From Candidatus Woesearchaeota archaeon (GTDB lineage Archaea; Nanobdellota; Nanobdellia; Woesearchaeales; UBA11576): a stretch of DNA of 64,000 nt. The DNA lies in contig JBDRET010000024.1 of the NCBI GenBank assembly GCA_043819495.1, forward strand, positions 7,177 to 71,176, given 5' to 3'. Positions 8,675 through 56,339 of this stretch are shown here, piece by piece (positions within the stretch are counted from its first letter, which is position 1; every line of letters starts with the position of its first letter). Position numbers and translations under genes: made by a program. The notes below the pieces were generated by a model that saw only the letters and a list, made by a program, of their open reading frames with translations, had not been told where the DNA came from and searched no databases.

Positions 8675-10309
8675 TCACTGCCGTACCATTCCCTTTACAT
8701 TATATACTTGAATAGGATTAGATTTTCCTTTCACTCTTATCGGTTCAAGCTCTTCACACTTGACGAGCTTCTTGACTTCTGCATGCGTGGTCGCGGTAAT
8801 GAGGATCTCATCTGCTTTTGCAGCTCCGCAAAGACGTGCGGCGACATTGACGCTGTTTCCTATGACTGTGTAATCCATGCGCTGCCTTGCGCCGACATTA
8901 CCTACGATCATCTCACCAGTATTGATGCCTATTCCGATATTTATGTCGATGCCATACTTCTTCTTGAACTTCTTGGATAATATCTTCTGTGCTGCCTGCA
9001 TCTCGACGGCAGTCTTCACTGCCTTGAGCGCATGCGCTTCGGTGCGGACTGGAGCGCCGAATATCGCCATTATCTCGTCACCTACAAACTTGTCTAGTGT
9101 CCCGTTGTTCTGGTGTATTATCTGCAACATCGTCTCGAAGTGCTCGTTGAGTATCTCTATTGTGTGTTCTGGTGCGAGCTGCTCTGACCATGCTGTGAAG
9201 TCACGCAGGTCTGAGAACAGTACGCTCATCTCACGTTTCTCTGTCCTGAGATAATTCTCTTCAGGGTTTGCAAGTATCTGCTTCATTACTTCAGGACTGA
9301 CGTAGCTCTGGAAGGCAGTCTTTATCTCGGTCTTTGCAAGATCCTCAAATACTGCTGAGTCTGCCTGCTTTGCGATAGCATTGAGAAGATTCTTGTCTAT
9401 CTTCGTGAACCCGTCAGATGAGCTTGAGTTTATCACTCCGAAGACACCCATAGTATCATCATTGAGCATGAATGGTGTACAGATAGCTGAGTCTATATCC
9501 TTGTTGACATTCTTGAACTCTGTAAGCTCTCCCTTGTTCAGTGTCGTACGTGCAGTATCATATAATGCATTTGAATTGTTATGGACAAATGTGGATGACT
9601 TGAGCTTGCCTGCGGTCTTGAGCTCCGTGGTGTTCATCTTCCTATTATTTATCATGAAGAATGCGAGCTTTGCATCTATGACATCAGTTATCTCCTGCAA
9701 TATCGCTTCCATCATCGTGTCAAAGTCTTTTATCGTGTCTCTGATCCGGTCTATGGCGTATATCGTCGAGAGCTCTTTGTCCTTCTCACTCAGTTCCCTG
9801 CGGCTCTTTGCGTGCTCGACAGCTACAGCAGTAAATTTACATATCATCCTGAAAAGTATGAGGTCCTTCTTCTTGAACAGTCTGCGGCTCTTGTTCATTA
9901 TCATGAAGACGCCGATCGGTTCTGATCCGTACATCAATGGCAATGCCATCACATTCTGTATCCTGCATCGTCTCATGCGCTTGTGCATACGGGTGTCATT
10001 CACTATTATCTGCTTCCCTGTCTTGACCAGGTTGTCACATATATCCCTGACCAATGCCTGATCCTCAAGCTGTTCGGAAGTGTTGGTCGCACCATACTCG
10101 AATGGGTTCATGTTGTCTTTGTTGTATAAGATTATGAATCCCAATTCTACTCCAATTGTCTTGACTGTCAGAAGAAGTATCTCCTTAAGGAGCTGGTAGA
10201 ATTCCTTTGTATTGGTCTCTATGGTCACCAATTCGCTCAATATGTATGAACGGGTATTCTGGGACCTGATCTTAGCTGCCAGTCTTTTGATCTTATCAGA
10301 GGATTTCAT
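8675..10309 (-). CDS. Class III adenylate/guanylate cyclase with two N-terminal GAF-like domains
   Basis: Cyclase homology domain motifs are present: 'VLFSDLRDFT', 'KFVGDEIMAIFGAP', 'INTGEMIVGNVG' and 'DYTVIGNSVNVAARL'. The N-terminal ~350 aa looks like tandem GAF sensor domains. Confidence 0.7.
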   Translation of the reverse strand: MKSSDKIKRLAAKIRSQNTRSYILSELVTIETNTKEFYQLLKEILLLTVKTIGVELGFIILYNKDNMNPFEYGATNTSEQLEDQALVRDICDNLVKTGKQIIVNDTRMHKRMRRCRIQNVMALPLMYGSEPIGVFMIMNKSRRLFKKKDLILFRMICKFTAVAVEHAKSRRELSEKDKELSTIYAIDRIRDTIKDFDTMMEAILQEITDVIDAKLAFFMINNRKMNTTELKTAGKLKSSTFVHNNSNALYDTARTTLNKGELTEFKNVNKDIDSAICTPFMLNDDTMGVFGVINSSSSDGFTKIDKNLLNAIAKQADSAVFEDLAKTEIKTAFQSYVSPEVMKQILANPEENYLRTEKREMSVLFSDLRDFTAWSEQLAPEHTIEILNEHFETMLQIIHQNNGTLDKFVGDEIMAIFGAPVRTEAHALKAVKTAVEMQAAQKILSKKFKKKYGIDINIGIGINTGEMIVGNVGARQRMDYTVIGNSVNVAARLCGAAKADEILITATTHAEVKKLVKCEELEPIRVKGKSNPIQVYNVKGMVRQ

Positions 10310-10699
10310 ATTATGGGTAATTTGTTATTCCACGCAAGTAGTAAACTTGTATAAGTTATATTTAAATGTTTTGTTTATTGGTTTTTTCCGGTGATCTGCC
10401 GGCCATTTTTTGCACGTGTTTAAACTGCTTTATTCTGTATTATTAGAGCTTCTATGGTTTTTTTATTGTGCTCTGTTTTACTATACTGCTTATTTTATTG
10501 TTGTTTTTAGTCTTTTATATTTATGTGCGAACAGAAAGATTTAAATATTGGTTTGTAGAGCTATTTAATATAGGCAGAAACAGTAACGGCTTTGGTTTAA
10601 TGACTTTCAGAGGATTCCGTTTGTTAAACGGTCTCCCTTTGCTATCGAATCGGGTTATTTCACCTTTAGCCGTACTGTGGTTTTATCTGCAAGCAAGAG

Positions 10700-11386
10700 G
10701 TGTTTGAAATGCCAGCCCCCACAAACAATGTTTTCAATAGTGTTGCAGCACAGTATCTGCAGAAAGACAGCGCATTCTATTCTAATGTGTCAAAAGCACA
10801 TGATATCTTATGTAAGGTCAGGAATCAGTCAGATGGACACGGCATAACATTTGTAGTGAGACGTAATGAGTATATGCCAAGTCTTGACCGTCGCCTCAGG
10901 AACGCAAAGCAGTATAACGAAGAATCACACCTGCTTGATGATCAGGATATAGTCGAAGTAGTTGCAGACCACCGTGAGGTCGACCTTGCGACCATAGTCA
11001 ATAATGAGGGTCAGATAACCGCTGCGAGCGTATACCTGCCTGCGGATGATCTCATGTATCAGGATAAGTATGGGATCCAATGCGACATCTCAACCTTCCT
11101 CGGTTATGCTCCGGATGAGGATGGTGCAGGTGGACGGGCGATAAGCTCTCTCTGTGCGTCAGATATGTTCAATGGTGACGTCGCCATATTGACACTTGGC
11201 GAGACATCGCCTACTGGGAAGAAAGGTGAGATAAACCTGTATTTCCAAGGTGATAGGCTGTATAACAGTAAAGGGAGAGCTGTACGTTGGGACCTTGCAG
11301 ATCCTTTGAGGTTACCTAAGACGCGGAGACAGTTGTACAGTATTCCTTACTTGAGTGAGAGCACCATTGCGCTCACTCCGTTTTAG
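10700..11386 (+). CDS. Hypothetical protein with a divergent DisA_N/DAC-like (diadenylate cyclase) domain
   Basis: Aligns by eye to the CdaA DAC core. 'IVNNEGQITAASVYLPADD' matches 'IIQGxxIAAAASYLPLSD', and 'GGRAISSLCASDMFNGDVAILTLGETSPTG' matches '[29 protein letters not shown]'. The catalytic DGA and RHR motifs are replaced by DLA and GGRA. Confidence 0.35.
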   Translation: MFEMPAPTNNVFNSVAAQYLQKDSAFYSNVSKAHDILCKVRNQSDGHGITFVVRRNEYMPSLDRRLRNAKQYNEESHLLDDQDIVEVVADHREVDLATIVNNEGQITAASVYLPADDLMYQDKYGIQCDISTFLGYAPDEDGAGGRAISSLCASDMFNGDVAILTLGETSPTGKKGEINLYFQGDRLYNSKGRAVRWDLADPLRLPKTRRQLYSIPYLSESTIALTPF

Positions 11387-11462
11387 GCATCGTCACTTTA
11401 TGCTGAACTGCATCAGCTTTTTCTTCTATTTTTTTTCAGCTCGCTAGGCAGTGGTGCTCTCA
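11356..11462 (+). repeat. Hairpin element family 1, copy A (107 nt)
   Basis: Terminal inverted repeat tgagagcacca / tggtgctctca, with internal 'ttgcgctcac ... aactgca ... cagctcgctaggcag'. It overlaps the last codons of the 10700-11386 ORF. Confidence 0.6.
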
Positions 11463-11535: not shown

Positions 11536-12774
11536 ATGAGCATGAAGAAAGAGCTTGAGGCAGTCGTTGAGCAGATACGGCCTTCCGATAAGAAACTCCT
11601 TAAAGAAGTCAATGATTTCATCAAGAAGCTCAATGCAGAACTCAAGGTAAAAGGCATACGCGCAAAGACAGTCATGGGTGGGTCTATAGCTAAAGATACC
11701 TACCTGAAAGGTGACCATGATTGCGACCTATTTGTCAGGTTCCATAAGAGCTATGCTGACAAAGACATATCAAAACTTCTTGGAGCAGTACTAAAACCAT
11801 TCAGACCTGTCAAAGTACACGGAAGCAGAGATTATTATCATATAAAGAACGGTATCAATTATGAGATTGTCCCGGTACTCGAGATAACTGATGCAAAAGA
11901 TGCAGTGAATGTCACTGACATGAGCCCTATGCATGTCACCTGGGTGAAAGACCATCCTGGGTTGACTGATGAGATACGTCTCGCAAAACAGTTCTGCAAA
12001 GCAAGCGGAGTATATGGTGCAGAATCTTACATCAAAGGATTTTCCGGTCATGTTCTTGATATATTGGTCATACAGTACGGCGGTTTTGTCAATTTCCTGA
12101 AGGCAACTCAGAAATGGAAAGACAAGGAAGTGATAGACCCTGAGAAGCATTACAAAAAAGATGCGCTCCAAAAGCTAAACAGGTCAAAGATAGACAGTCC
12201 AATAATAGTCATAGATCCAGTATGTCCTGAAAGGAATGCTGCTGCTGCATTATCCGGAGAGAAACTAGATATGCTCAAAGCTGCTGCTGCAAAGTTCCTC
12301 AAGGAACCATCAAAGGATCTATTCGTCGTGCGTGAGAAGAGCACTGTTGACATAAAGACCGGCGCAGGCAAGAACAAGACAATAATGCTTGAGGTCACTG
12401 CGTTCCGCGGAAAAGAGGATGTTGTCGGTGCGAAATTGCTCAAGGCATTCCAGCAGATCCACAACCAGCTCAGGTTCTATGATTTTGAGGTCATCGATGC
12501 AGGATGGAAATGGAACAAGAAGGAGAAAGCGCTCTTCTGGTATGTGCTTGACCCAAAAGACCTGATCCAGATAAAGAAATGGATCGGACCTCCTCTGCGC
12601 GAGACAGAACGGATAAAGAATTTTGAGAGCAAGCACGGAAATACATTCGTCGAGGATGGCAGGGTATGCACTTACGTTAAGCGTAAGTATGTGAATGCAG
12701 AAGCGCTGATAGATGATATAATCAAGGATGATGAGCATCTATATGAAAAGGTGAAGAGGGTGGTCCGTAAATGA
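11536..12774 (+). CDS. cca: Archaeal CCA-adding enzyme (class I tRNA nucleotidyltransferase)
   Basis: 'GGSIAKDTYLKGDHDCDLFVRF' is the class-I polymerase-beta-like motif. Length ~412 aa. The track's start at 11488 is trimmed to the MSMKK Met. Confidence 0.85.
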   Translation: MSMKKELEAVVEQIRPSDKKLLKEVNDFIKKLNAELKVKGIRAKTVMGGSIAKDTYLKGDHDCDLFVRFHKSYADKDISKLLGAVLKPFRPVKVHGSRDYYHIKNGINYEIVPVLEITDAKDAVNVTDMSPMHVTWVKDHPGLTDEIRLAKQFCKASGVYGAESYIKGFSGHVLDILVIQYGGFVNFLKATQKWKDKEVIDPEKHYKKDALQKLNRSKIDSPIIVIDPVCPERNAAAALSGEKLDMLKAAAAKFLKEPSKDLFVVREKSTVDIKTGAGKNKTIMLEVTAFRGKEDVVGAKLLKAFQQIHNQLRFYDFEVIDAGWKWNKKEKALFWYVLDPKDLIQIKKWIGPPLRETERIKNFESKHGNTFVEDGRVCTYVKRKYVNAEALIDDIIKDDEHLYEKVKRVVRK

Positions 12775-13709: not shown

Positions 13710-14741
13710 ATGAAACTCGCAGAACAACTACGGCAAGAATTCCTCGACCATGGGAGAGGATTCGAGAACATAATAGGACAGGACCCTGTCAAACAGCAGG
13801 TAAAGTCAGCACTCATCGCAGGAAGGCATATACTGATAGTAGGTCCTCCAGGGATAGGGAAGACAACTCTTGCAAAGAGCATCGCAGGACTGCTGCCTGA
13901 GACTGAGGTCAAGAACTGCCCTTACAACTGCCTGCCTGAAAGGCCTGTGTGCCCTGAATGCAAGACGGGTAGGACAGATGGAACAAAGATAGTCGCAGGT
14001 CTTGATTTTTTTGTAAGGGTACAGGGAAGCCCCGACCTTACTGCTGAAGATCTTATAGGTGATATCGATCCTGCAAAAGCGATGGAACACGGACCGCTCA
14101 GTATTGAAGCATTCACTCCAGGAAAGATATTCAAGGCAAACAATGGCGTGCTGTTCTTTGATGAGCTCAACAGGGCTCCGGAGAAACTCCAGAATGCACT
14201 GCTTCAGGCATTGCAGGAGAGGACAGTTACGATCGGCAGCTATGACGTTGACCTTGAGGCAAATTTCATATTCATAGCGACCATGAATCCTGATGATTCA
14301 AGTACAGAACCCCTCTCTGATGTCCTTCTTGACCGTTTTGATGTTGCATACATGGTATATCCTGAGAGCATCGAGAATGAGGTACGCATAGTAGAAGAGA
14401 ACTCCCAGCATTTTCTTGAGTTCCCTGAAAATGTACGCAATCTCACAGTGCTTTTTGTCAGGCTCCTGCGTGAGAGCGACAAGCTTGAGAAGCTTCCTAG
14501 TGTCAGGGCGTCAATAGGATTGTATGAACGGGCGCAGACAAATGCCCTGGTGAAAGGCAAACAAAAAGTAGAATGGCAAGATGTACAGGATGTTCTAGTG
14601 TCCGTGCTCAGCCATAGGATAAAACTCAAGCCATCTTCACAATATCTGCAGACCCCGCAGGAACTCATAAAGGAACAGCTCTCAAAGTTTGTGGAACAGC
14701 ACGGGATCCAGAGAGAAGCCGAAGAGGGTGATGTTCCCTAG
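13710..14741 (+). CDS. MoxR/magnesium-chelatase-like AAA+ ATPase with a zinc-ribbon insertion
   Basis: Walker A 'GPPGIGKTT', Walker B 'VLFFDELNRA', sensor 'ATMNPDD', and an inserted 'CPYNCLPERPVCPECKTG' zinc ribbon. Confidence 0.7.
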   Translation: MKLAEQLRQEFLDHGRGFENIIGQDPVKQQVKSALIAGRHILIVGPPGIGKTTLAKSIAGLLPETEVKNCPYNCLPERPVCPECKTGRTDGTKIVAGLDFFVRVQGSPDLTAEDLIGDIDPAKAMEHGPLSIEAFTPGKIFKANNGVLFFDELNRAPEKLQNALLQALQERTVTIGSYDVDLEANFIFIATMNPDDSSTEPLSDVLLDRFDVAYMVYPESIENEVRIVEENSQHFLEFPENVRNLTVLFVRLLRESDKLEKLPSVRASIGLYERAQTNALVKGKQKVEWQDVQDVLVSVLSHRIKLKPSSQYLQTPQELIKEQLSKFVEQHGIQREAEEGDVP

Positions 14742-15942
14742 TAGTGCTGAGGCAAAAGATAAGGATACTGTAAAACTCGATATCTCAAGCCTTACACCTC
14801 TACAGGAGATGGATGGCAAGCTTAAGCTTGACAATGTAGATGACAAGCTCATGCACTCTGTTCTTGAGAATGACCAGGAAGTCATAGATGAAGGTATGGT
14901 GATAGAAGAAGCCATAAACAGGGGAATAGGATCATTTAGCCCTGACATGATGTTCGAGAAGCTCGTCAAGAATTATACAATGGCAAAGAGCATCTTTGGA
15001 GAGGCTCTGATCAGAGCAATCTCAGGATACGATCCTGAATATCTGGACAAAAATATAGGCATACCTGAATTCCAAAGAGAGCTCAAGAAAAGGATCGAGG
15101 AAAAACTGGACAGATTCAAGAAAGATGGGATAATAGACAAACAGGGCATAATCACTGACAAAGGGATAGAACTCGCATCACTCATAATGTGCATCCAAGA
15201 GCTTGACAATATCGTACCCAAAGGGATATCTGGCGAGAGAGTGCACAAGAGACATTCTATATATGGCGGAAAGAGTGATGTGCGCAACTATAGGAAAGGT
15301 GACCGGTATCGTGATATCGCTGTCAAGATGTCTGCCAAGACTGCGATACGCAGAGGACATCACGAGATAGGTATGGGGGATCTCAAGACATACGAACGGC
15401 AGAGTAAGGGCGAAGTGTATCTCATCTATGCACTTGATGCTAGCGGAAGCATGAAAGGAGATAAGATAGGGGTGTGCAAGAAAGCAGGTGTTGCACTTGC
15501 GTATCGTGCTATCCAGGAGAAAGATAGGGTCGGGCTCATAGTTTTTGGCACAGATGTGAAAGAAGCGATACCACCGACAACAGATTTTTCATTATTGCTC
15601 AATTCCATAACACGAGTAAAAGCATCAGCAGAGACTGACATGGCAGCCACCATCAGAAGGGCTGTCGAACTTTTCCCCAATACTGATGTGACCAAGCATC
15701 TTCTTGTACTCAGTGATGCGCTGCCGACAAAAGGTGATGATCCAGAGAAAGAGACACTTGAAGCTGCAGCAGTCGCAAGGGCTGCAGGAGTGACAATATC
15801 ATTGATAGGAATAGACTTGGATGCCAAGGGCAAGAAGCTTGCAGAGAAACTTGTGGAACTCGGGAACGGGAAGCTCTATGTGGTCAAGGACCTGAAAGAT
15901 ATAGACAAGATAGTGCTTGAGGATTATTATAGTGTGATGTGA
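14731..15942 (+). CDS. von Willebrand factor A (vWA) domain protein partnered with the preceding AAA+ ATPase
   Basis: MIDAS-like 'YALDASGSMKGDK', then 'LIVFGTD' and 'LVLSDALPTKGDD'. The start overlaps the ATPase stop. This is the classic MoxR-vWA (ChlI/ChlD-like) pair. Confidence 0.65.
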   Translation: MFPSSAEAKDKDTVKLDISSLTPLQEMDGKLKLDNVDDKLMHSVLENDQEVIDEGMVIEEAINRGIGSFSPDMMFEKLVKNYTMAKSIFGEALIRAISGYDPEYLDKNIGIPEFQRELKKRIEEKLDRFKKDGIIDKQGIITDKGIELASLIMCIQELDNIVPKGISGERVHKRHSIYGGKSDVRNYRKGDRYRDIAVKMSAKTAIRRGHHEIGMGDLKTYERQSKGEVYLIYALDASGSMKGDKIGVCKKAGVALAYRAIQEKDRVGLIVFGTDVKEAIPPTTDFSLLLNSITRVKASAETDMAATIRRAVELFPNTDVTKHLLVLSDALPTKGDDPEKETLEAAAVARAAGVTISLIGIDLDAKGKKLAEKLVELGNGKLYVVKDLKDIDKIVLEDYYSVM

Positions 15943-38612: not shown

Positions 38613-39695
38613 TTAAAAACTAAGCAAGCTTTTAAAAGTTTGGTTTTTCGGGGTGTACTTCGGCTTGTTCAGTGACTGCATCTCTTTTACAATATCAAGA
38701 TGCTCTATGCCTATCTTACCAACATAAAGGTCATTGATAGAACCTCCTTCTGCAAGATACTTCTTCACCTTAAGATACCCATCTATGTAGACATAGTCTT
38801 TCTGGCAGCCTCCAGGTCTTGATGTATCTGCGATGCCGCGTTTGACCCTTGTGGTTATCCTGAATGCTGTCGATGGCTGGAAGAACTGAAGAAGATACTT
38901 ATATATCTCTGAGAAGCTCTTAGTGAGTGCCATCTGGACAGCGACTGCTCTTGCGGCATAATTCTTGATATTCTCATTATTCAACAGTCCGAATCGCTCT
39001 TCATTGACTACTGCAAGTCCCTCTTCTGTAGCGAGATAATCAGGGAATCCGTGGAAGAACATCATGAATGGCTGTTCCCTGCCGTTCTCAGCGCGAAGGA
39101 CATGAGTACCTATCTCGTGTATCACCAGCCTTTTGATGAAATTGTCTGAGAACATGAAATTATCTTTGATGAATATCTTTTTTTTTGATACCAACACTGC
39201 AGCGCTTGCGCTCATGTTCTTTGTATCGACATCATAACCGAAACCGTAATGGTTGACTTCTGCCTGTATCCTATGCTTAGCAGTGATTGGATCTATGGTC
39301 TTTGCTTCTTTCTCGCATTCAAGTGTGAGAAGGTTTGCGGAATGATCAAGGGCTTCATTTGAGGGAGTCCCATACACTTTACGAGAGAACACTGTGAATT
39401 TCTTTGATCCTCTATTGTTCAACATCTCGCACTTGTCTATGAAAAGGTTACGTTTCCTGCTCAAGAGCTCTCCAAAAGCAGAATCATGATCATCTATAGA
39501 ATTCAGCCTGGACTGTACTGCATCATAATCAAAATCAAGCTCAGGGTATATGAAATACGGGTCATAATCAGGATCCGCAAGCACTTTAATCTTTTCAGAT
39601 TCGTTGTTTATCGGATTTATCTCGAAAAAGCTGACTGGATTGATCACTTGCTGTAGACTTGCATCTATGTTCTTGAGTTTGAAAAAATCTGCCAT
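38613..39695 (-). CDS. DUF1704-family putative zinc metallopeptidase (HExxH plus QEGLA-type motif), paralog 1
   Basis: 'HEIGTH' and 'TEEGLAVV'. Confidence 0.5.
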   Translation of the reverse strand: MADFFKLKNIDASLQQVINPVSFFEINPINNESEKIKVLADPDYDPYFIYPELDFDYDAVQSRLNSIDDHDSAFGELLSRKRNLFIDKCEMLNNRGSKKFTVFSRKVYGTPSNEALDHSANLLTLECEKEAKTIDPITAKHRIQAEVNHYGFGYDVDTKNMSASAAVLVSKKKIFIKDNFMFSDNFIKRLVIHEIGTHVLRAENGREQPFMMFFHGFPDYLATEEGLAVVNEERFGLLNNENIKNYAARAVAVQMALTKSFSEIYKYLLQFFQPSTAFRITTRVKRGIADTSRPGGCQKDYVYIDGYLKVKKYLAEGGSINDLYVGKIGIEHLDIVKEMQSLNKPKYTPKNQTFKSLLSF

Positions 39696-48254: not shown

Positions 48255-51200
48255 ATGGTACTTGAGAAACTTGGAACTTCACTCAGAGACACACTCCACA
48301 AGATAAGTAAAGCAGTCTTTGTAGATGAAAAACTGGTCAATGAGCTGGTCAAGGATATCCAGCGGGCCCTTCTCCAGTCAGATGTCAATGTCAAGATGGT
48401 ATTTGAGCTCTCCAAGAAGATAAAGGAGAGGCTGATGAATGATGATGCACCTCCAGGCCTGACAAAGAAAGAATTCCTCATAAAGATAGTGTATGAAGAG
48501 CTTGTGAACTTCCTTGGGGCTGAAGCATCAACTATAGAGATAACGAAGAAACCAACTAAGATCATGATGGTAGGACTTTTTGGTCATGGAAAATGTGTAC
48601 ATAAGGACAGCAACATACTTCTTTTTGACGGTACAACTGTCGGGGTGCAGCAACTATACGACTCCTACAGGTGCAATGGGGAGGTCGACATAGAGGATGG
48701 ATGTATCATACCTCTTGATGCAGAGCTTTCTGTCCCTTCGATGAACACAAAAAGCCTGAAGATCGAGAAAAAGAGAGTGACTCATCTCTGGAAACTGAAA
48801 TCAAAAGACCTGATGGCTGTATCGCTCGATATGGGAAATGACTTCAACGTCAAGACCACCTGTGAGCACCCGTTCTTTGTACTGAAAGATGGCTTGGTGG
48901 AGCAAAGAAGGGCAGATGAATTAAGGAGAGGGGATTATGTAGCAATACCTGCGAAGGTCACTACAGAATCTGGCAGCATCAACTTTGAGGACTCTCTGAA
49001 GAGACTCAACCTCAACGTGAAGATATCTGATGATAAGACCTTAAGAACACTCAAGAAAAAGATAATAGCAGAACATGGAACACTGATGCGCGCAGCTTAC
49101 TCACTCCCCCATAAACGTAATTATGCTGTATTTACGAGTTCCTTAAAGAAAGGAGAGATCCCAATCCAGCTATGTGGCCTCGGAACATCTGATGCTGTGC
49201 ACTTAAAGCTGCAGAACTCCCAAGATTATATCGATTTTCCCACAAGATCAACACCTGAAATGGCAGAATTCTTGGGCTACATCATAGGCGATGGTCATCT
49301 TTCCCATAATAGTGTCAACATATCAAATAAGGACCCTGAAATAATCGAGAGACTGAAAACATTGTCGAAAGACCTCTTCGGCAGGGAGCTGAAGCTTACC
49401 CCCTGCAAAAGGTCCAAAGGATTGTATGATCTCAGGATAAACTCTAAGACCCTTGTCACGCTCATACATGGGCTGTTCGGCATACCGATAGGAAAGAAAG
49501 GGACTGGACTGGAAGTCCCTCAACTCGTACAACTGTCTTCGCAAGATGTAATCTCCAGATTCCTGAGGGCTTATTTCGATTGCGATGGGTATTTCTGCCG
49601 TACCCAAAGGCAGATTGAAGCAGTATCTGAAAGCAGAGTGCTGCTAAGACAGATACAGCATATGCTGCTAAGGTTCGGGATTGTCGCGAAGATGATCAAT
49701 AAGAGAACCGATGGGAAGGACTATTCCAGGCTAATGGTGCAGGCGAGGGATACTGTCATATTCGGTGAGAGGATAGGCGCATCAATCGCAAGGAAAAGGG
49801 AAGCGCTTGAGAACCATGTTATCATGACCATCAAGCAAGGTGATGGAAAGAAAGACATGATACCGGTCGGCAGCCTCCTGAGAGAATTAAGGGAAATGTC
49901 CGGTTTCTCTTTAAGCCAGATACAGGATGCTGTAAGTTCATATGGCCTGTACGAGAAGAAAGGCATGATATCCAGGACACAATTACGCAATGTCGTCTGT
50001 TTCTATGAGCGTGGCGAGAGCGGCAATTTCCGTAAGTTGATAGGCCTGGTGGAGAACTCGCAAAAAGACAAGCTCAGCGAACAGCTACGGATAAGCCAAC
50101 CATTGGTAAACGCGCTTGTGGGAGAGCTGAGGAACAGAAACATGATCGCAGAAGTCACGAACTCACCTACCAGACTTGTCCTTACAGAAAAAGGGAGTAA
50201 GTATTTTGATGGCATGAAACGATCCTCGGACAGACTGTTCGGGATCCTGAGAACCCTTGCGTATGCTGATGTCTGCTGGGCCAAAGTCAAAGACGTCTCT
50301 AAAGTCAAGAATGACCATCCATATGTGTATGATCTCACTGTCGAGGACAGCCATAACTTCATCGCTGATGGCATTGTGGTGCATAATACGACGACTGCCG
50401 CTAAGTTAGCTAAATACTACCAGAAACGTGGCAATAAATTGGCATTGATATCCACAGATACCTGGAGGCCGGCAGCATTTGAGCAATTGAGACAGTTAGG
50501 TGCGCAGATAAACGTCCCGGTATTCGGAAATCCTAAAGCAAAGAGTCCTGTAGCGATATACAAAGAATTCGAAGACAAGCTTGGCGAGTTTGATCTTGTC
50601 ATCATAGATACTGCAGGAAGGGATGCATTGTCTGATGAGCTCATCAGGGAACTGAATGATATCAATAATGCTGTGCAGGCAGATGAGAAACTTCTTGTCA
50701 TAGGCGGTGATGTCGGGCAGGCTGCGGAAAGGCAGGCACAGACATTCCACGATACCTGTAATGTGACTGGTGTGATAATAACAAAGCTTGAAGGTACAGC
50801 AAAAGGTGGCGGTGCACTGATAGCATGCTCCGTGACCGGCGCAAAAGTAAAGTTCATAGGAGTAGGAGAGAAGATTGATGACCTTGAAGTGTACTCTCCT
50901 GAAAGGTTCGTCGGAAAGATGCTTGGCATGGGCGATCTTGAAGGCCTCCTTGAGAAAGCACGTGAAGCGATAACAGAAGAAGATGCACAGGACCTCGGTA
51001 AGAAACTCCTGAAAGGTGATTTTAACCTCCTTGACCTTTATGAGCAGATGCAGGCGATGAAGAAGATGGGGCCTTTGGGCAAGGTGATGGACATGATACC
51101 TGGCTTTGGTCAGATCAAGCTGCCAAAGGATGCATTGAAAGTCCAAGAAGAGAAGATCAAGAAATGGAAATTCATACTCGACAGCTGCACCAAAGAGGAG

Positions 51201-51437
51201 CTGGAAGACCCTGACAGCAACATGAGCGCACAGCGCATCGACAGGATATCAAAAGGCTCAGGTGTCGGGCCTGGAGAGATACGCGAACTGCTTAAACAGT
51301 ACAAACAGAGCAAGAAGATGATGAAGTCACTGAAAGGACTGGGTGGAGGATCACCTGCGCAGATGGAAAAGATGATGAAGCGCATGGGTGGCGGGATGCC
51401 TGGGATGAAAGATGGAAAGAACATGATGTTCAAGTAA
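48255..51437 (+). CDS. srp54: Signal recognition particle protein SRP54 interrupted by an intein (extein ~462 aa)
   Basis: N domain, then P-loop 'GLFGHGK' + [intein] + 'TTTAAKLA', then 'DTAGR', 'TKLEGTAKGG' and the M domain 'GMGDLEGLLEK...MKKMGPLGKVMDMIPG'. Confidence 0.85.
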   Translation: MVLEKLGTSLRDTLHKISKAVFVDEKLVNELVKDIQRALLQSDVNVKMVFELSKKIKERLMNDDAPPGLTKKEFLIKIVYEELVNFLGAEASTIEITKKPTKIMMVGLFGHGKCVHKDSNILLFDGTTVGVQQLYDSYRCNGEVDIEDGCIIPLDAELSVPSMNTKSLKIEKKRVTHLWKLKSKDLMAVSLDMGNDFNVKTTCEHPFFVLKDGLVEQRRADELRRGDYVAIPAKVTTESGSINFEDSLKRLNLNVKISDDKTLRTLKKKIIAEHGTLMRAAYSLPHKRNYAVFTSSLKKGEIPIQLCGLGTSDAVHLKLQNSQDYIDFPTRSTPEMAEFLGYIIGDGHLSHNSVNISNKDPEIIERLKTLSKDLFGRELKLTPCKRSKGLYDLRINSKTLVTLIHGLFGIPIGKKGTGLEVPQLVQLSSQDVISRFLRAYFDCDGYFCRTQRQIEAVSESRVLLRQIQHMLLRFGIVAKMINKRTDGKDYSRLMVQARDTVIFGERIGASIARKREALENHVIMTIKQGDGKKDMIPVGSLLRELREMSGFSLSQIQDAVSSYGLYEKKGMISRTQLRNVVCFYERGESGNFRKLIGLVENSQKDKLSEQLRISQPLVNALVGELRNRNMIAEVTNSPTRLVLTEKGSKYFDGMKRSSDRLFGILRTLAYADVCWAKVKDVSKVKNDHPYVYDLTVEDSHNFIADGIVVHNTTTAAKLAKYYQKRGNKLALISTDTWRPAAFEQLRQLGAQINVPVFGNPKAKSPVAIYKEFEDKLGEFDLVIIDTAGRDALSDELIRELNDINNAVQADEKLLVIGGDVGQAAERQAQTFHDTCNVTGVIITKLEGTAKGGGALIACSVTGAKVKFIGVGEKIDDLEVYSPERFVGKMLGMGDLEGLLEKAREAITEEDAQDLGKKLLKGDFNLLDLYEQMQAMKKMGPLGKVMDMIPGFGQIKLPKDALKVQEEKIKKWKFILDSCTKEELEDPDSNMSAQRIDRISKGSGVGPGEIRELLKQYKQSKKMMKSLKGLGGGSPAQMEKMMKRMGGGMPGMKDGKNMMFK
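48594..50387 (+). mobile_element. Intein (~598 aa) with a LAGLIDADG homing-endonuclease domain, inserted in the SRP54 P-loop
   Basis: Begins Cys ('K|CVHKDSNILLFDG'), ends 'VVHN|T'. Block B 'THLW'. LAGLIDADG motifs 'LGYIIGDGHL' and 'YFDCDGYF'. Confidence 0.8.
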
Positions 51438-52053: not shown

Positions 52054-52920
52054 ATGACTATCGCTTACATAAGGACTATGGCTGATGACTCTGGTACTTT
52101 AGCAGTCTTTCAAGGGAAACGCATACGAAAGACTTGGCAAGTTGACGAATGGTGGTTCGTGATAGAGGATATTATCGTTGCGTTGACTGATTCTCATGAC
52201 CCTAAACAGTATATCCAGAAGATGAAACAGAGGGATGAAGAGTTGGCTAAAGGGTGGGTACAGATTGTACGTACCCTTTCAATAAAAACCTCTGGGGGCT
52301 CTCAGAACATGAATTGTACCAATACTGAAGGCGCTTTCAGGATAATACAATCTATACCGTCCCAAAAAGCAGAGCCGTTCAAGCTTTGGCTTGCAAAGGT
52401 AGGTCATGAACGTGTACAGGAGATAGAAAATCCGGAAATCGCACAGAAACGCATGAAAGAGCTTTATAGGCAGAAAGGCTATTCTGACGATTGGATTGAG
52501 AAAAGAGTGCGTGGAATCGCCATAAGGGATGAGCTCACTGACCAATGGAGTACAAGAGGAGTCAAAGAAGAAAAGGAATACGCGATACTCACTGCGCAGA
52601 TATCGAAGGCAACATTCGGGATGACCCCGTCAGAGTATCAAAAGTTCAAAGGTCTGAAACGGCAAAACTTAAGGGATCACATGAACGATCTCGAACTCAT
52701 ATTCTCCATGCTTGGCGAAAGGGCGACAACAGAGATAGCAGTCACTAAGGATGCACAAGGATTCCTTCAAAATGAACAGGCAGCAAAGAAAGGTGGGACT
52801 ATCGCAGGTGATGCTCGAGAGAAACTAGAGGTTGAGACCGGAAAAAGAGTATCTACGCCTCTGAATTATCGTGATGAACCCGAAAACGTGAAGAAAATTG
52901 AAGCAAAGAAAAAAAGATGA
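52054..52920 (+). CDS. DinD-like (DNA-damage-inducible protein D family) with a Bro-N/KilA-N-like N-domain
   Basis: N-terminal 'FQGKRIRKTWQVDEWWFVIEDIIVAL' (Bro-N-like). The C-terminal 'KGLKRQNLRDHMNDLELIFSMLGERATTE' is recalled as similar to E. coli DinD 'KGLKKNQKILDHMGSTELAANLFRATQTE'. Confidence 0.45.
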   Translation: MTIAYIRTMADDSGTLAVFQGKRIRKTWQVDEWWFVIEDIIVALTDSHDPKQYIQKMKQRDEELAKGWVQIVRTLSIKTSGGSQNMNCTNTEGAFRIIQSIPSQKAEPFKLWLAKVGHERVQEIENPEIAQKRMKELYRQKGYSDDWIEKRVRGIAIRDELTDQWSTRGVKEEKEYAILTAQISKATFGMTPSEYQKFKGLKRQNLRDHMNDLELIFSMLGERATTEIAVTKDAQGFLQNEQAAKKGGTIAGDAREKLEVETGKRVSTPLNYRDEPENVKKIEAKKKR

Positions 52921-54114: not shown

Positions 54115-55182
54115 CTACTCAGTTTCAAGAATCTTAGGAAAATATACTGGAGGTCTAAGAATTCCTTTTTTCAGCAGATTCCTTACAAGAGTCAGGTCAT
54201 CTAGTCCGATTGCACCTGCGTACAATGTCTTGAAATCACCATCCTCTTCTGCGAACTTCCGTATCTTTACAAGACCTTGAAGATATATGTGATCCTTGAT
54301 GTAGCCCCCTCCCCTGAAAACCCTAAACGTCAGATCCCACGCCTGATCATCACTAAGACCTTCTGTTTTCATGATGTCAAATGTCTTTCGGAAATCCTTA
54401 CCTTTCATGACAGAGTCAACCGCCACTACACGGAGTGCGCAGTCCCTTAACCTTTCAGTGCTCAGAGTGCCTGTCTTTTCCTCCAGAAACGATGCGAGCC
54501 CTTCTTCTGTGTCCAAGTAGCCTGGAAGACCCAGGCCCATTATCTTCAAGGGTTGGGCGTATCCATTTGCACACCTGAACACATGCCCCAGGACTTCATG
54601 GATGCAAATCCTTGCGAGCTCAGCTTCACTCACGACGCGATCCCTACCGACACCAATCTTATTTTCAGCAGAATAAACTGTGGTAAGCCTCTTGTCAGAA
54701 AGTTCCACTTTCCACCCGATGAGCTTATTTTCCCTAAGAACAGTCTCAATCTTCTCTTTTATCCTTGATGCCGGAATTGTATTCTCCTGTTCAGCTGGGG
54801 GAGTCTCTTTTGATATTTTTAGAGAGTACTCCAGAAGATATTTAGAAGGATATCCATAAAGCTGCATTGTCAGCTCTTTTATTTTTTCGCTTCTCCCAAT
54901 ATTCATCACTATTGTATTCGCAGTCAGAAGTTCTGTTCTTTTTCTCTCAAATATGTCCTTGAGATCACACTCCGGAATCGTGATATCCTGCAGCAGGTCA
55001 TTGATTGCAGATGGATCGTACCCAATCTTGCGGTATTGGAACTCTGGCGCTTCAATTTCTCCTCTCAGAAACCTGCTTTTTTGTTGTGCTCCATTGAGGG
55101 GAGTACAATAAAGCAACGGTTTTATCTGCTCAGAGCATCCTTTCAAGATGTCTGTAATCCTGTTGAGGTGGTCTATGTTCAT
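54115..55182 (-). CDS. DUF1704-family putative zinc metallopeptidase, paralog 2
   Basis: 'HEVLGH' and 'TEEGLASF'. Paralog of 38613-39695. The start is trimmed to MNIDHL. Confidence 0.5.
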   Translation of the reverse strand: MNIDHLNRITDILKGCSEQIKPLLYCTPLNGAQQKSRFLRGEIEAPEFQYRKIGYDPSAINDLLQDITIPECDLKDIFERKRTELLTANTIVMNIGRSEKIKELTMQLYGYPSKYLLEYSLKISKETPPAEQENTIPASRIKEKIETVLRENKLIGWKVELSDKRLTTVYSAENKIGVGRDRVVSEAELARICIHEVLGHVFRCANGYAQPLKIMGLGLPGYLDTEEGLASFLEEKTGTLSTERLRDCALRVVAVDSVMKGKDFRKTFDIMKTEGLSDDQAWDLTFRVFRGGGYIKDHIYLQGLVKIRKFAEEDGDFKTLYAGAIGLDDLTLVRNLLKKGILRPPVYFPKILETE

Positions 55183-55184
55183 TT

Positions 55185-56339
55185 TCACTTCAGGAATATC
55201 TGTACAACATCCCCGTCCTGGAGGACATGATTCAGCATGAGCCGCTGACCTGGGAACTTCGCGCTCTTGCCCCATACTTTTGAGAAGCGGAACTTTGTCA
55301 CGAAATCTTTATGTAGTTTTGAACACATATCTCGTATGGTGTTCCCGTTCCGCATTATGAGCGGTTCTTCAAGATCTGCTTTCTTCCCTCCTTCCTTGCA
55401 GTAGATGCGTATGAAATTGAGTTTCTGGAATATGGCGTCCTTCAGCTCTTCGATATTGATCTTTTCTTCAGCAGATATGCATATGTCCGGATTTATCTCT
55501 GCCTTTATCTCTGCTAGGCGTTGCTCATCGATAAGGTCTATCTTGTTCAGGACAATGAGGCCTGGGATGTAGACCCTGTTTCCTTCAAGTACATCGATCA
55601 GGTCATCGACGCCGATCTCTGAACGTATCAGTATCTCCGCATTGTTGATTCGCATCTCTTTACATATTGCCTTGATGGTTTCATCTGAAAGCGTGTCGAG
55701 CTTCACAGTCTTACCTACCCTGATACCATCTTTTGATTTCTTCGTTATCTTGACATCAGGTTTTCGTATATTTAACCTGAGGTGAGCATCACGTACCTCT
55801 TTGAGTATCACCTTGTATGCGTTCGGCCGCAGGGCATCCACCAGTATGATGCCAAGATCAGCGTTCTGCATGACTGATAGGACTTCTCTTCCTCTTCCTC
55901 TGCCTGATGCTGCTCCGTATACGATACCAGGGACATCAAGGATCTGGATCTTTGCCTGTTTGTATTCCAGAAGTCCTGGAACGACTGAAAGAGTGGTGAA
56001 CTCATATGCGCCTACGGGGGAGTCTGCATTCGTGATTATGTTAAGGAGACTTGATTTGCCTGCAGATGGGAACCCGACAAGTATGACTGTAGCATCACCG
56101 CTCTTTCTCACAGAATATCCTGAAGTTGCAGGACCTTTCCTTTGGCGGAGCTCATCTTTCTTCTTAAGTTCAGCTATCTTCGCACGTACCAGCCCATAAT
56201 GATGCTGGGTCCGTTTATTGTACTGCATCTTACTGAGTTCAGCTTCCATTTCCTGGATACGATCCCAGTTAGATGCTTTCTTCTTGTTAGACTCAGGTTT
56301 CTCTTTCGTGCTTACCTGCTTAGTTTTCTTTTCAGCCAT
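55185..56339 (-). CDS. DRG/Obg-family GTPase with a C-terminal TGS domain
   Basis: G1 'GFPSAGKSS', G3 'DVPG', 'NKID', and a C-terminal TGS-like 'GDVVQIFLK'. Confidence 0.75.
   Translation of the reverse strand: MAEKKTKQVSTKEKPESNKKKASNWDRIQEMEAELSKMQYNKRTQHHYGLVRAKIAELKKKDELRQRKGPATSGYSVRKSGDATVILVGFPSAGKSSLLNIITNADSPVGAYEFTTLSVVPGLLEYKQAKIQILDVPGIVYGAASGRGRGREVLSVMQNADLGIILVDALRPNAYKVILKEVRDAHLRLNIRKPDVKITKKSKDGIRVGKTVKLDTLSDETIKAICKEMRINNAEILIRSEIGVDDLIDVLEGNRVYIPGLIVLNKIDLIDEQRLAEIKAEINPDICISAEEKINIEELKDAIFQKLNFIRIYCKEGGKKADLEEPLIMRNGNTIRDMCSKLHKDFVTKFRFSKVWGKSAKFPGQRLMLNHVLQDGDVVQIFLK

Follow-up and report, generated by a model that had tools for sequence, protein, structure and literature searches.

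In archaea, signalling by cyclic di-AMP (c-di-AMP) is known only from the DacZ-type enzymes of Euryarchaeota, diadenylate cyclases (DACs) that carry the canonical DGA and RHR motifs. Both motifs belong to the active site and have been described as necessary for DAC domains to bind their ligands (PMC8573169), and dacZ has been reported absent from the DPANN, TACK and Asgard lineages (PMC12699388). The DisA of Mycobacterium tuberculosis shows residual ATPase and ADPase activity and stays active as the G73A variant (PMC3328451). A minimal DAC of the Panoptoo anti-phage system, PanS, produces 3'3'-cUA or c-di-AMP by means of the catalytic motifs DGF and GGR; residues D71, G72, G107 and R108 are found at the base of its site (Ragucci, Haley, Kranzusch, bioRxiv 10.64898/2026.08.10.743927). 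In this study, a gene for a DAC-fold protein with alterations in both hallmark motifs was analysed in 64,000 nucleotides of Candidatus Woesearchaeota DNA (assembly GCA_043819495.1, contig JBDRET010000024.1, positions 7,177 to 71,176), hereafter called the window. The coding sequence runs from 10709 to 11386 on the plus strand, as do all features below unless stated, and specifies 225 amino acids plus a stop codon. Its product is a stand-alone member of a small and very divergent branch of the DAC (DisA_N) superfamily. We tentatively favour, at somewhat less than an even chance, the reading that it acts as a variant nucleotide cyclase whose cleft appears to be functional but remodelled.

The DAC alpha/beta fold of the window protein was confirmed in its predicted structure. 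With an alignment of 31 family sequences, AlphaFold2 (AF2) gave a model with a predicted local distance difference test (pLDDT) score of 92.1 and a predicted template modelling (pTM) score of 0.88; an alignment of 5 sequences gave a pLDDT of 44 and an unusable model, and a confident one was obtained only from the 31 sequences. When the model was compared with the PDB by Foldseek, 50 of the 50 matches listed were DisA, CdaM or CdaA/DacA (probability 1.00, best E-value 5.4e-6), with target-normalised template modelling (TM) scores of 0.54-0.67 except for two full-length DisA chains (0.27 and 0.42). These known enzymes share the fold and the order of secondary structure elements of the window protein. 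A preliminary description of the locus, made from the DNA letters alone, had proposed a DAC-fold protein and had suggested comparing an AlphaFold model with CdaA; the proposed DAC fold was borne out by the model and by the DAC-only matches. The same description called its by-eye alignment to CdaA and DisA strong, which overstates it: identities to DAC structures are 11-17% in Foldseek and 22% over 107 columns when the family is aligned by hhalign with the DAC domain of Listeria CdaA (E-value 5e-5), and the sequence E-value is marginal. Matched with 6hvl, the CdaA query used for hhalign gave 323 bits across its entire length.

At the level of sequence, membership in the DAC superfamily is supported transitively, through homologs and fold, rather than directly. 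The Pfam DAC family (PF02457; gathering cut-off 27 bits) was matched by 14 of the 31 family members, and the cut-off was reached by the homologs P0026 (34.6 bits), P0031 (30.2 bits), P0028 (29.3 bits) and P0009 (27.0 bits). The gathering score was attained by P0009 and by members of a sister subfamily, A6, and A6 aligned with the window subfamily, A3, by hhalign with a probability of 99.4% (E-value 3e-21) over 180 columns that include the N-terminal hairpin and the insertion described below. Searches of the PDB with the 31-sequence profile, or with P0026 by itself, hit diadenylate cyclases only (7l8n, 2fb5, 9g69, 8ofg and 6gyw). The window protein by itself gave no significant match in a phmmer search of PDB sequences. 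The PDB matches of the window protein and of a 5-sequence profile (a poxvirus IMV protein, KCNQ1 and the PolD small subunit) were rejected as chance, and Pfam DACNK (E-value 0.17) and the NCBIfam SDR models (E-value ~0.2) were treated as noise; NCBIfam offered nothing useful. Thus, the resemblance to DACs exceeds chance at the family and fold level only. By its defining motifs and by the Pfam threshold the protein falls outside the canonical DAC family, and it belongs to the superfamily by fold and transitive homology.

The motif register agreed across hhalign, the profile search against the PDB and the Pfam coordinates. D92-L93-A94 (10982..10990) is the counterpart of DGA (D171-G172-A173 in CdaA) according to both kinds of alignment and to the family counts, so that Asp and Ala are kept and Gly is replaced by Leu. 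The counterpart of the G-T-R-H-R-A stretch that holds RHR (G-T202-R203-H204-R205-A in Listeria CdaA) is G141-G142-R143-A144-I145-S146 (11129..11146, from hhalign and the PDB profile), in which the Gly and the first Arg of RHR are retained, the preceding Thr is Gly, and the His and second Arg are Ala and Ile. These substitutions, DGA to DLA and RHR to GGR-A, had already been read from the sequence in the preliminary description and were reproduced by all three methods. In the hhalign register, L163-G164-E165-T166 (11195..11206) corresponds to S-E-E-T of CdaA (S222-E223-E224-T in Listeria); the second Glu is kept and the Ser is Leu. In CdaA, the Glu of SEE is a metal ligand. The same register places Y109-L110-P111 (11033..11041) at the Y-L adenine site of CdaA, which is likewise retained and where Tyr187 and Leu188 provide adenine stacking and main-chain hydrogen bonding (PMC11066881).

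Compared with canonical DACs, the window protein has three additional elements. In the AF2 model, two N-terminal helices (residues 5-14 and 22-40) precede a DAC core in canonical order, followed by short inserted helices (114-121 and 127-130), a long helix (142-157) that starts from the G-x-R motif, three more strands and a poorly predicted C-terminal tail. The N-terminal helical hairpin (residues 5-40; 10721..10828) is common to A6 by hhalign. So is a family-specific insertion of ~18 residues (~118-136; 11060..11116) between strand beta4 and the G-x-R helix, recognised by hhalign and AF2; it comprises stretches of 13 and 5 residues for which CdaA has gaps, and contains two short helices with a conserved YGI...FLG. 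The third element is the C-terminal motif G181-D-R-x-Y-N-S-(A/K)-G-R-x-x-x-W194 (11249..11290), identified from column counts and predicted by AF2 to form a beta-hairpin (strands at 175-179 and 182-186); it is absent from canonical DACs and from A6. The earlier reading had placed an insertion elsewhere, at DEDGAGGRA, and had noted that it creates another DGA beside RHR. That does not hold, because DGAGGR pairs without gaps with KELGTR of CdaA and the real insertion lies upstream. Nor is a role for the new DGA (residues 138-140) supported, as the tripeptide is unique to the window protein: an ortholog of 81% identity has DGP, and other members have CP, TP, AP, GL and others at this position. 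The peptide strings quoted in that description, NNEGQITAASVYLPADD, GDVAILTLGETSPTG and DEDGAGGRA, are all present in the open reading frame (ORF) at 10700..11386.

Unlike canonical DACs, the window protein carries neither a transmembrane nor an HhH domain, and no further regulatory domain. PanS resembles it as a stand-alone DAC protein in which GGR replaces TRHR; on the published motifs, by which alone the two were compared, it differs in keeping Gly (DGF) where the window protein has DL. Moreover, PanS is a bacterial protein of ~150 amino acids encoded with an S2TM-beta effector in two-gene operons of defence islands, and none of this holds for the window gene. CdaS (YojJ helices plus DAC, PDB 2fb5) is likewise small and soluble and has its DAC domain after two N-terminal helices, and 2fb5 was the second and only other PDB chain in the family-profile search (E-value 1.1). 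However, CdaS is a bacterial, sporulation-specific protein with canonical DGA and RHR, and no Pfam YojJ match was found here; the likeness of the helices is one of architecture only and is perhaps convergent. DacZ/CdaZ is, like the window protein, an archaeal DAC-domain protein, but it has a PK_C-like N-terminal domain where the window protein has only the 40-residue helical hairpin and no PK_C-like/DacZ_N match. DacZ is essential in Haloferax, whereas the window-type gene is fast-evolving and missing in one relative. The uncharacterised A6 proteins (P0026-like, ~200 amino acids) are clear homologs and share the Ile at the position of the second Arg (GTRHIS). They differ in retaining DG[AV] and LSE as well as the Thr and His of VGTRHISS, in passing the Pfam DAC threshold, in lacking the YNSAGR motif and in their genomic context.

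Conservation was counted in the 31-sequence alignment, some columns being scored in 30 sequences. The near-invariant columns are H44, G45, D92, G141, R143, S146 and G181, and 4 of these 7 fall in the two classical nucleotide-binding motifs. In the cleft, D92 is conserved in 28/30, G141 in 31/31, R143 in 30/30, S146 in 28 and E165 in 27/30 sequences. The substituted positions are variable: at position 93, where DGA has its Gly, 30 sequences show G (15), L (9), A (2) and one each of Q, C, K and N, and locus L020 has F; position 142 (canonical Thr) is A, G, T, F, M, L or S; position 144 (canonical His) is K, A, N, T, H or R; and position 145 (second Arg) is I in 7, R in 7, T in 5, L in 4 and others in the rest. 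The preliminary description had proposed a survey of orthologs for its variant motifs. In this survey Leu93 did recur (9/30), but the variant is not uniform, with Gly93 kept in 15/30 and R145 in 7. At the adenine site, L110 is found in 25/31 and P111 in 21/31 members, and Tyr109 is not conserved. Outside the cleft, G122 of the insertion is present in 27/31, and the C-terminal motif is conserved at G181 (30), R183 (23), Y185 (20), N186 (18), S187 (21), G189 (23), R190 (21) and W194 (22). Two conserved motifs, (P)YNG..H (69-74) and YGI (120-122), have no counterpart in canonical DACs; a further one, G-D-R-x-Y-N-S-A-G-R...W (181-194), is confined to the window subfamily. The family thus forms a graded series: A6 has invariant DG[AV], VGTRHISS and LSE; several members of the window subfamily have DGA with R-x-R (for example, GFRNRS and GMRNRS); and the window's own clade has DLA, GGR(A/T)IS and LGE(T/N).

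The changes at positions 93 and 142 are correlated. Across 45 sequences, the Spearman coefficient between the side-chain volumes at the two positions is -0.70. Of 14 sequences with a bulky residue at 93 (L, F, Q, C, K or N), 13 have G or A at 142, and of 28 with Gly93, 24 have a larger residue at 142 (T, F, M, L or S). Among all pairs of columns, this pair ranked 34th of 13,811 for negative volume correlation and 216th of 13,812 for mutual information after average product correction (APC). On a neighbour-joining tree made without columns 93 and 142, parsimony, which corrects for phylogeny only crudely here, required ~7 changes per site at both positions and placed the bulky-93/small-142 state in at least 5 separate branches (P0027, P0007 with the window clade, P0022, P0017 and P0014); P0014 (L, A) is the sister of P0023 (G, T) on this tree. 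The swap argues for contact between the two positions, and for a cleft whose shape is being preserved and is not decaying. This co-variation of Gly and Thr points to a cleft that would be maintained and remodelled.

The gene call and the selection on the gene were also examined. The enclosing ORF has 228 codons (10700..11386), and the first reading of the DNA took its GTG at 10700 as the start; the true start is most likely the ATG at 10709. The resulting 225-residue product is identical to the NCBI hypothetical protein V1729_07305 of a Candidatus Woesearchaeota metagenome-assembled genome (MAG). A Shine-Dalgarno sequence, GAGGTG (10697..10702), read from the sequence, lies 6 nt 5' of this ATG, and a (G/A)AGGTG box also precedes the ATG in loci L001, L003, L004, L006 and L010. 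Against the 81%-identical ortholog in L004, the ratio of nonsynonymous to synonymous substitution rates (dN/dS) is 0.105 with dS ~1.2, and the gene is therefore under purifying selection. A decaying relic or a spurious, functionless ORF might be suspected from the weak Pfam DAC score and the very small family. Nevertheless, the same slot holds intact ORFs in 14 independent loci, the Shine-Dalgarno and TATA boxes are conserved, and co-variation among 31 sequences yields a confidently predicted fold. Selection and conservation effectively refute this explanation, to which we give almost no credence.

The C-termini of the family (window residues ~196-225; A2 columns 330-466) are poorly predicted, yet have a conserved Ala-rich end. 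Many members terminate in ...LAA, ...AA or ...AAG.., and some in A-Y-x; the window protein terminates in IALTPF. These Ala-rich ends resemble ssrA-like or HbYX-like C-terminal signals.

The DAC-like gene occupies a fixed genomic slot. In the window and 12 further informative loci, from MAGs, one single amplified genome (SAG) and metagenomes, the order is a cyclase on the opposite strand, ~400 bp of intergenic DNA, the DAC-like gene and a CCA-adding enzyme. A fourteenth locus, L011, is uninformative: it was rejected as a cyclase-free case because only 249 bp lie upstream of its DAC-like gene and the cyclase would fall beyond the contig end. The cyclase therefore adjoins the DAC-like gene in 13/13 informative loci carrying that gene. 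In the window it is a divergently transcribed GAF-GAF class III adenylate cyclase of 544 amino acids (8675..10309, minus strand; Pfam Guanylate_cyc, 102 bits, plus GAF domains). It matched the CyaB of Pseudomonas aeruginosa (3r5g) with 140 bits, and the FSD..FT, KFVGD and N..AARL motifs, which provide metal, substrate and transition-state residues, align; from these motifs the neighbouring enzyme looks catalytically intact. Class III cyclases have been reported as very rare in archaea (PMC8646023); this one is strongly conserved in a DPANN lineage. On the other side, always 3' of the DAC-like gene, is an archaeal class I CCA-adding enzyme (11536..12774; Pfam tRNA_NucTransf2 and CAA_C on orthologs), preceded by a T-rich tract (11418..11436) just after the stop codon of the DAC-like gene that, from the sequence, is a plausible archaeal terminator. 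A tRNA-related gene is next downstream on the same strand in both subfamilies, the CCA enzyme in the window and a tRNA U5-methyltransferase in the A6 locus L009 (6087-7196), which may be a coincidence.

The intergenic region (10310-10708, ~400 bp) is unusually long for a compact genome, and the same is seen in L001, L003, L004, L005, L006, L008 and L010. An archaeal TATA-like box, TTTAAATA (10540..10547), is invariant in an alignment of six intergenic regions. It lies 162-170 nt from the start codon of the DAC-like gene in the window (~169), L004, L001, L003 and L010, and farther away in L005 and L006; this position implies a 5' leader of ~135 nt. Another invariant box, TTTAAAT (10361..10367, minus strand), stands ~50 nt ahead of the cyclase start and is probably the promoter of that gene. 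At ~45 nt upstream of the ATG of the DAC-like gene, a small hairpin with a T-tract behind it recurs, with two copies in L003. RNAalifold found no consensus pairs in the ~135-nt leader (single-sequence z-score -2.3), and Rfam gave no match in the window; the possibility of a riboswitch or structured leader was dropped.

The association with the cyclase is not specific, because the slot belongs to a larger syntenic block (DUF87/HerA-like gene, 776-residue T2SSE ATPase, small ORF, cyclase, DAC-like gene, CCA enzyme), because a more distant relative, L016 (cyclase 60% and CCA enzyme 59% identical), lacks the DAC-like gene, and because A6 genes sit in unrelated contexts. In L016 (1968-5135) the cyclase and CCA genes are directly adjacent, 297 bp apart, and the DAC-like gene was either inserted into the slot or lost there. 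An obligate functional coupling to the adenylate cyclase, considered as an explanation of the fixed order, is weakened by the block-wide synteny and by this cyclase without a DAC-like gene.

Within the slot, the DAC-like gene evolves 2-3 times faster than its neighbours, unlike essential c-di-AMP synthases. Pairwise identities among loci are 80-84% for the T2SSE ATPase, 63-84% for the cyclase (up to 91% over all related loci) and 61-74% for the CCA enzyme (up to 81% by tblastn/blastp), compared with 24-59% for the DAC-like protein when the close window/L004 pair is excluded. Between L005 and L008, for example, the cyclase is 84% and the DAC-like protein 49% identical; in L010 the values are 64% and ~25%. 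Given its fast evolution and its absence from one relative, the gene looks more like an accessory, lineage-specific signalling gene than like an essential core enzyme. When 1.84 billion representative proteins were searched exhaustively with HMMER, 26 clusters were returned, none of them a canonical DAC. The family is confined to one lineage of very small archaea, most plausibly DPANN and labelled Woesearchaeota or Nanoarchaeota; the ~80% identity of flanking proteins shows that the loci belong to a single lineage. The taxon labels of the loci conflict: they include Woesearchaeota, a Nanoarchaeota SAG and third-party annotation (TPA) MAGs of an 'uncultured Methanosarcinales archaeon' (L005, L007, which is the same as L001, and L008). 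The full synteny and ~80% identical flanks compared with the window and L006 indicate that at least one set of labels is wrong.

If the protein is a variant cyclase, as we favour, its cleft would bind a nucleotide triphosphate, with the metal on Asp92 (and probably Glu165) and the phosphate on Arg143. Two copies would meet head to head and form a cyclic dinucleotide, as in DisA and CdaA; PanS does so with only DG(F) and GGR. The product would be c-di-AMP or another dinucleotide. This reading is preferred to a non-catalytic binder because the active PanS also has GGR, and by analogy with PanS the replacement of TRHR by GGR would be compatible with catalysis. Several observations weigh on the other side. 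The window protein itself scores 13.9 bits (E-value 0.041) against Pfam DAC, below the cut-off. It lacks the His and second Arg of RHR, and in M. tuberculosis DisA the change of RHR to AAA abolishes ATP binding and activity (PMC3328451). The Gly of DGA, a ligand contact in DisA that PanS also keeps, is replaced by Leu (elsewhere by F, Q, K or N), and Leu at this position has no tested precedent. The gene evolves quickly and is missing from L016, the swap rests on a crude phylogenetic correction, and no gene for a c-di-AMP receptor or phosphodiesterase was recognised in the 64-kb window. The main rival is a non-catalytic, DAC-derived pseudoenzyme, one whose remodelled cleft still binds a nucleotide (c-di-AMP, the cAMP of the neighbouring cyclase, ATP or another) and which acts as a receptor or regulator; we regard this as a serious possibility, although a less than probable one. 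Both hallmark motifs are degenerate, and RHR is needed for ATP binding by DisA; the gene diverges faster than its neighbours and is dispensable in L016; ligand binding alone would just as well lead one to expect a conserved Asp, Arg and Glu; and the protein is always encoded beside a divergent GAF-regulated adenylate cyclase with intact catalytic residues. The degenerate GGDEF and EAL domains of c-di-GMP signalling offer a parallel. Conversely, the GGR of PanS is compatible with catalysis, several members keep DGA with R-x-R and the family is not uniformly degenerate, the cyclase of L016 without a DAC-like gene indicates that the partnership is not obligate, and to our knowledge no DAC-domain receptor has been described.

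The same cleft might serve a different chemistry, such as ATP/ADP hydrolysis, synthesis of a linear dinucleotide or nucleotidyl transfer, possibly related to tRNA. The residual ATPase and ADPase of DisA are in line with this, as is the fact that the His and Arg that bind the triphosphate are lost but the Asp, Arg and Glu are not. The PYNG..H, YGI and G-D-R-x-YNSAGR..W motifs without canonical counterparts, together with the tRNA-related gene downstream in both subfamilies, could be read in the same way. However, the downstream genes are set apart by T-rich tracts, the pairing perhaps reflects conserved gene order alone, and the C-terminal motif is absent from A6; such an activity seems improbable. 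In a role in conflict or defence, the protein would be a minimal DAC that serves, as in Panoptoo, as a signalling decoy; the fast evolution would then be accounted for, and such a role would fit the GGR shared with PanS, the quick divergence in a fixed slot between conserved flanks and the one locus without the gene. Yet no effector or membrane beta-rich protein is adjacent, the cyclase and CCA enzyme flank the gene at all loci, the surroundings are housekeeping genes, and the protein has 225 residues with extra elements rather than the ~150 of a minimal DAC. PADLOC gave no hit, and no fold relative turned up in BFVD, a library of viral structures. A defence system is thus unsupported, and we consider it very improbable. 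Beyond the preferred reading of a variant cyclase, a wider proposal can be formulated: a DPANN-specific, DAC-derived family whose site was rebuilt by the Gly/Thr swap would make or sense a non-canonical nucleotide second messenger and, with the adjacent GAF-regulated cyclase, form a new archaeal second-messenger module in a lineage reported to lack dacZ. At present, this proposal is speculative and rather unlikely.

The rest of the window consists of archaeal housekeeping genes, among which a few others were noted. The SRP54 gene (48255-51437) contains an intein with a LAGLIDADG homing endonuclease domain and specifies 1060 amino acids in total. Two paralogous proteins (38613-39695 and 54115-55275, both on the minus strand) strongly match the MATCAP family of microtubule-associated tyrosine carboxypeptidases (191 and 207 bits), which is unexpected in such an archaeon. 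A Bro-N domain protein (52054-52920), of a type usually tied to viruses or mobile elements, is encoded amid the housekeeping genes. About 2.3 kb downstream of the DAC-like gene, a MoxR-type AAA ATPase gene is followed by one for a DUF58/VWA protein (13710-15942), a classic MoxR-VWA pair.

In sum, the window protein represents a branch of the DAC superfamily that, as far as is known, was previously undescribed in the accessible literature, with the possible exception of a mention in Galperin's 2023 DAC classification. A conserved DAC-fold family in DPANN, where dacZ has been reported absent (PMC12699388), would widen the distribution of the fold. If active, the protein would extend c-di-AMP signalling or the list of DAC products; if inactive, it would be, as far as is known, the first DAC-domain pseudoenzyme or receptor. 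The natural series from DGA with GTRH through DGA with RxR to DLA with GGR, with its repeated swap, may serve as a test of which residues a DAC requires, complementing the finding on PanS that GGR is enough. Together with the neighbouring GAF-regulated cyclase of a class rare in archaea (PMC8646023), the DAC-like gene flags a small nucleotide-signalling locus in very reduced genomes.

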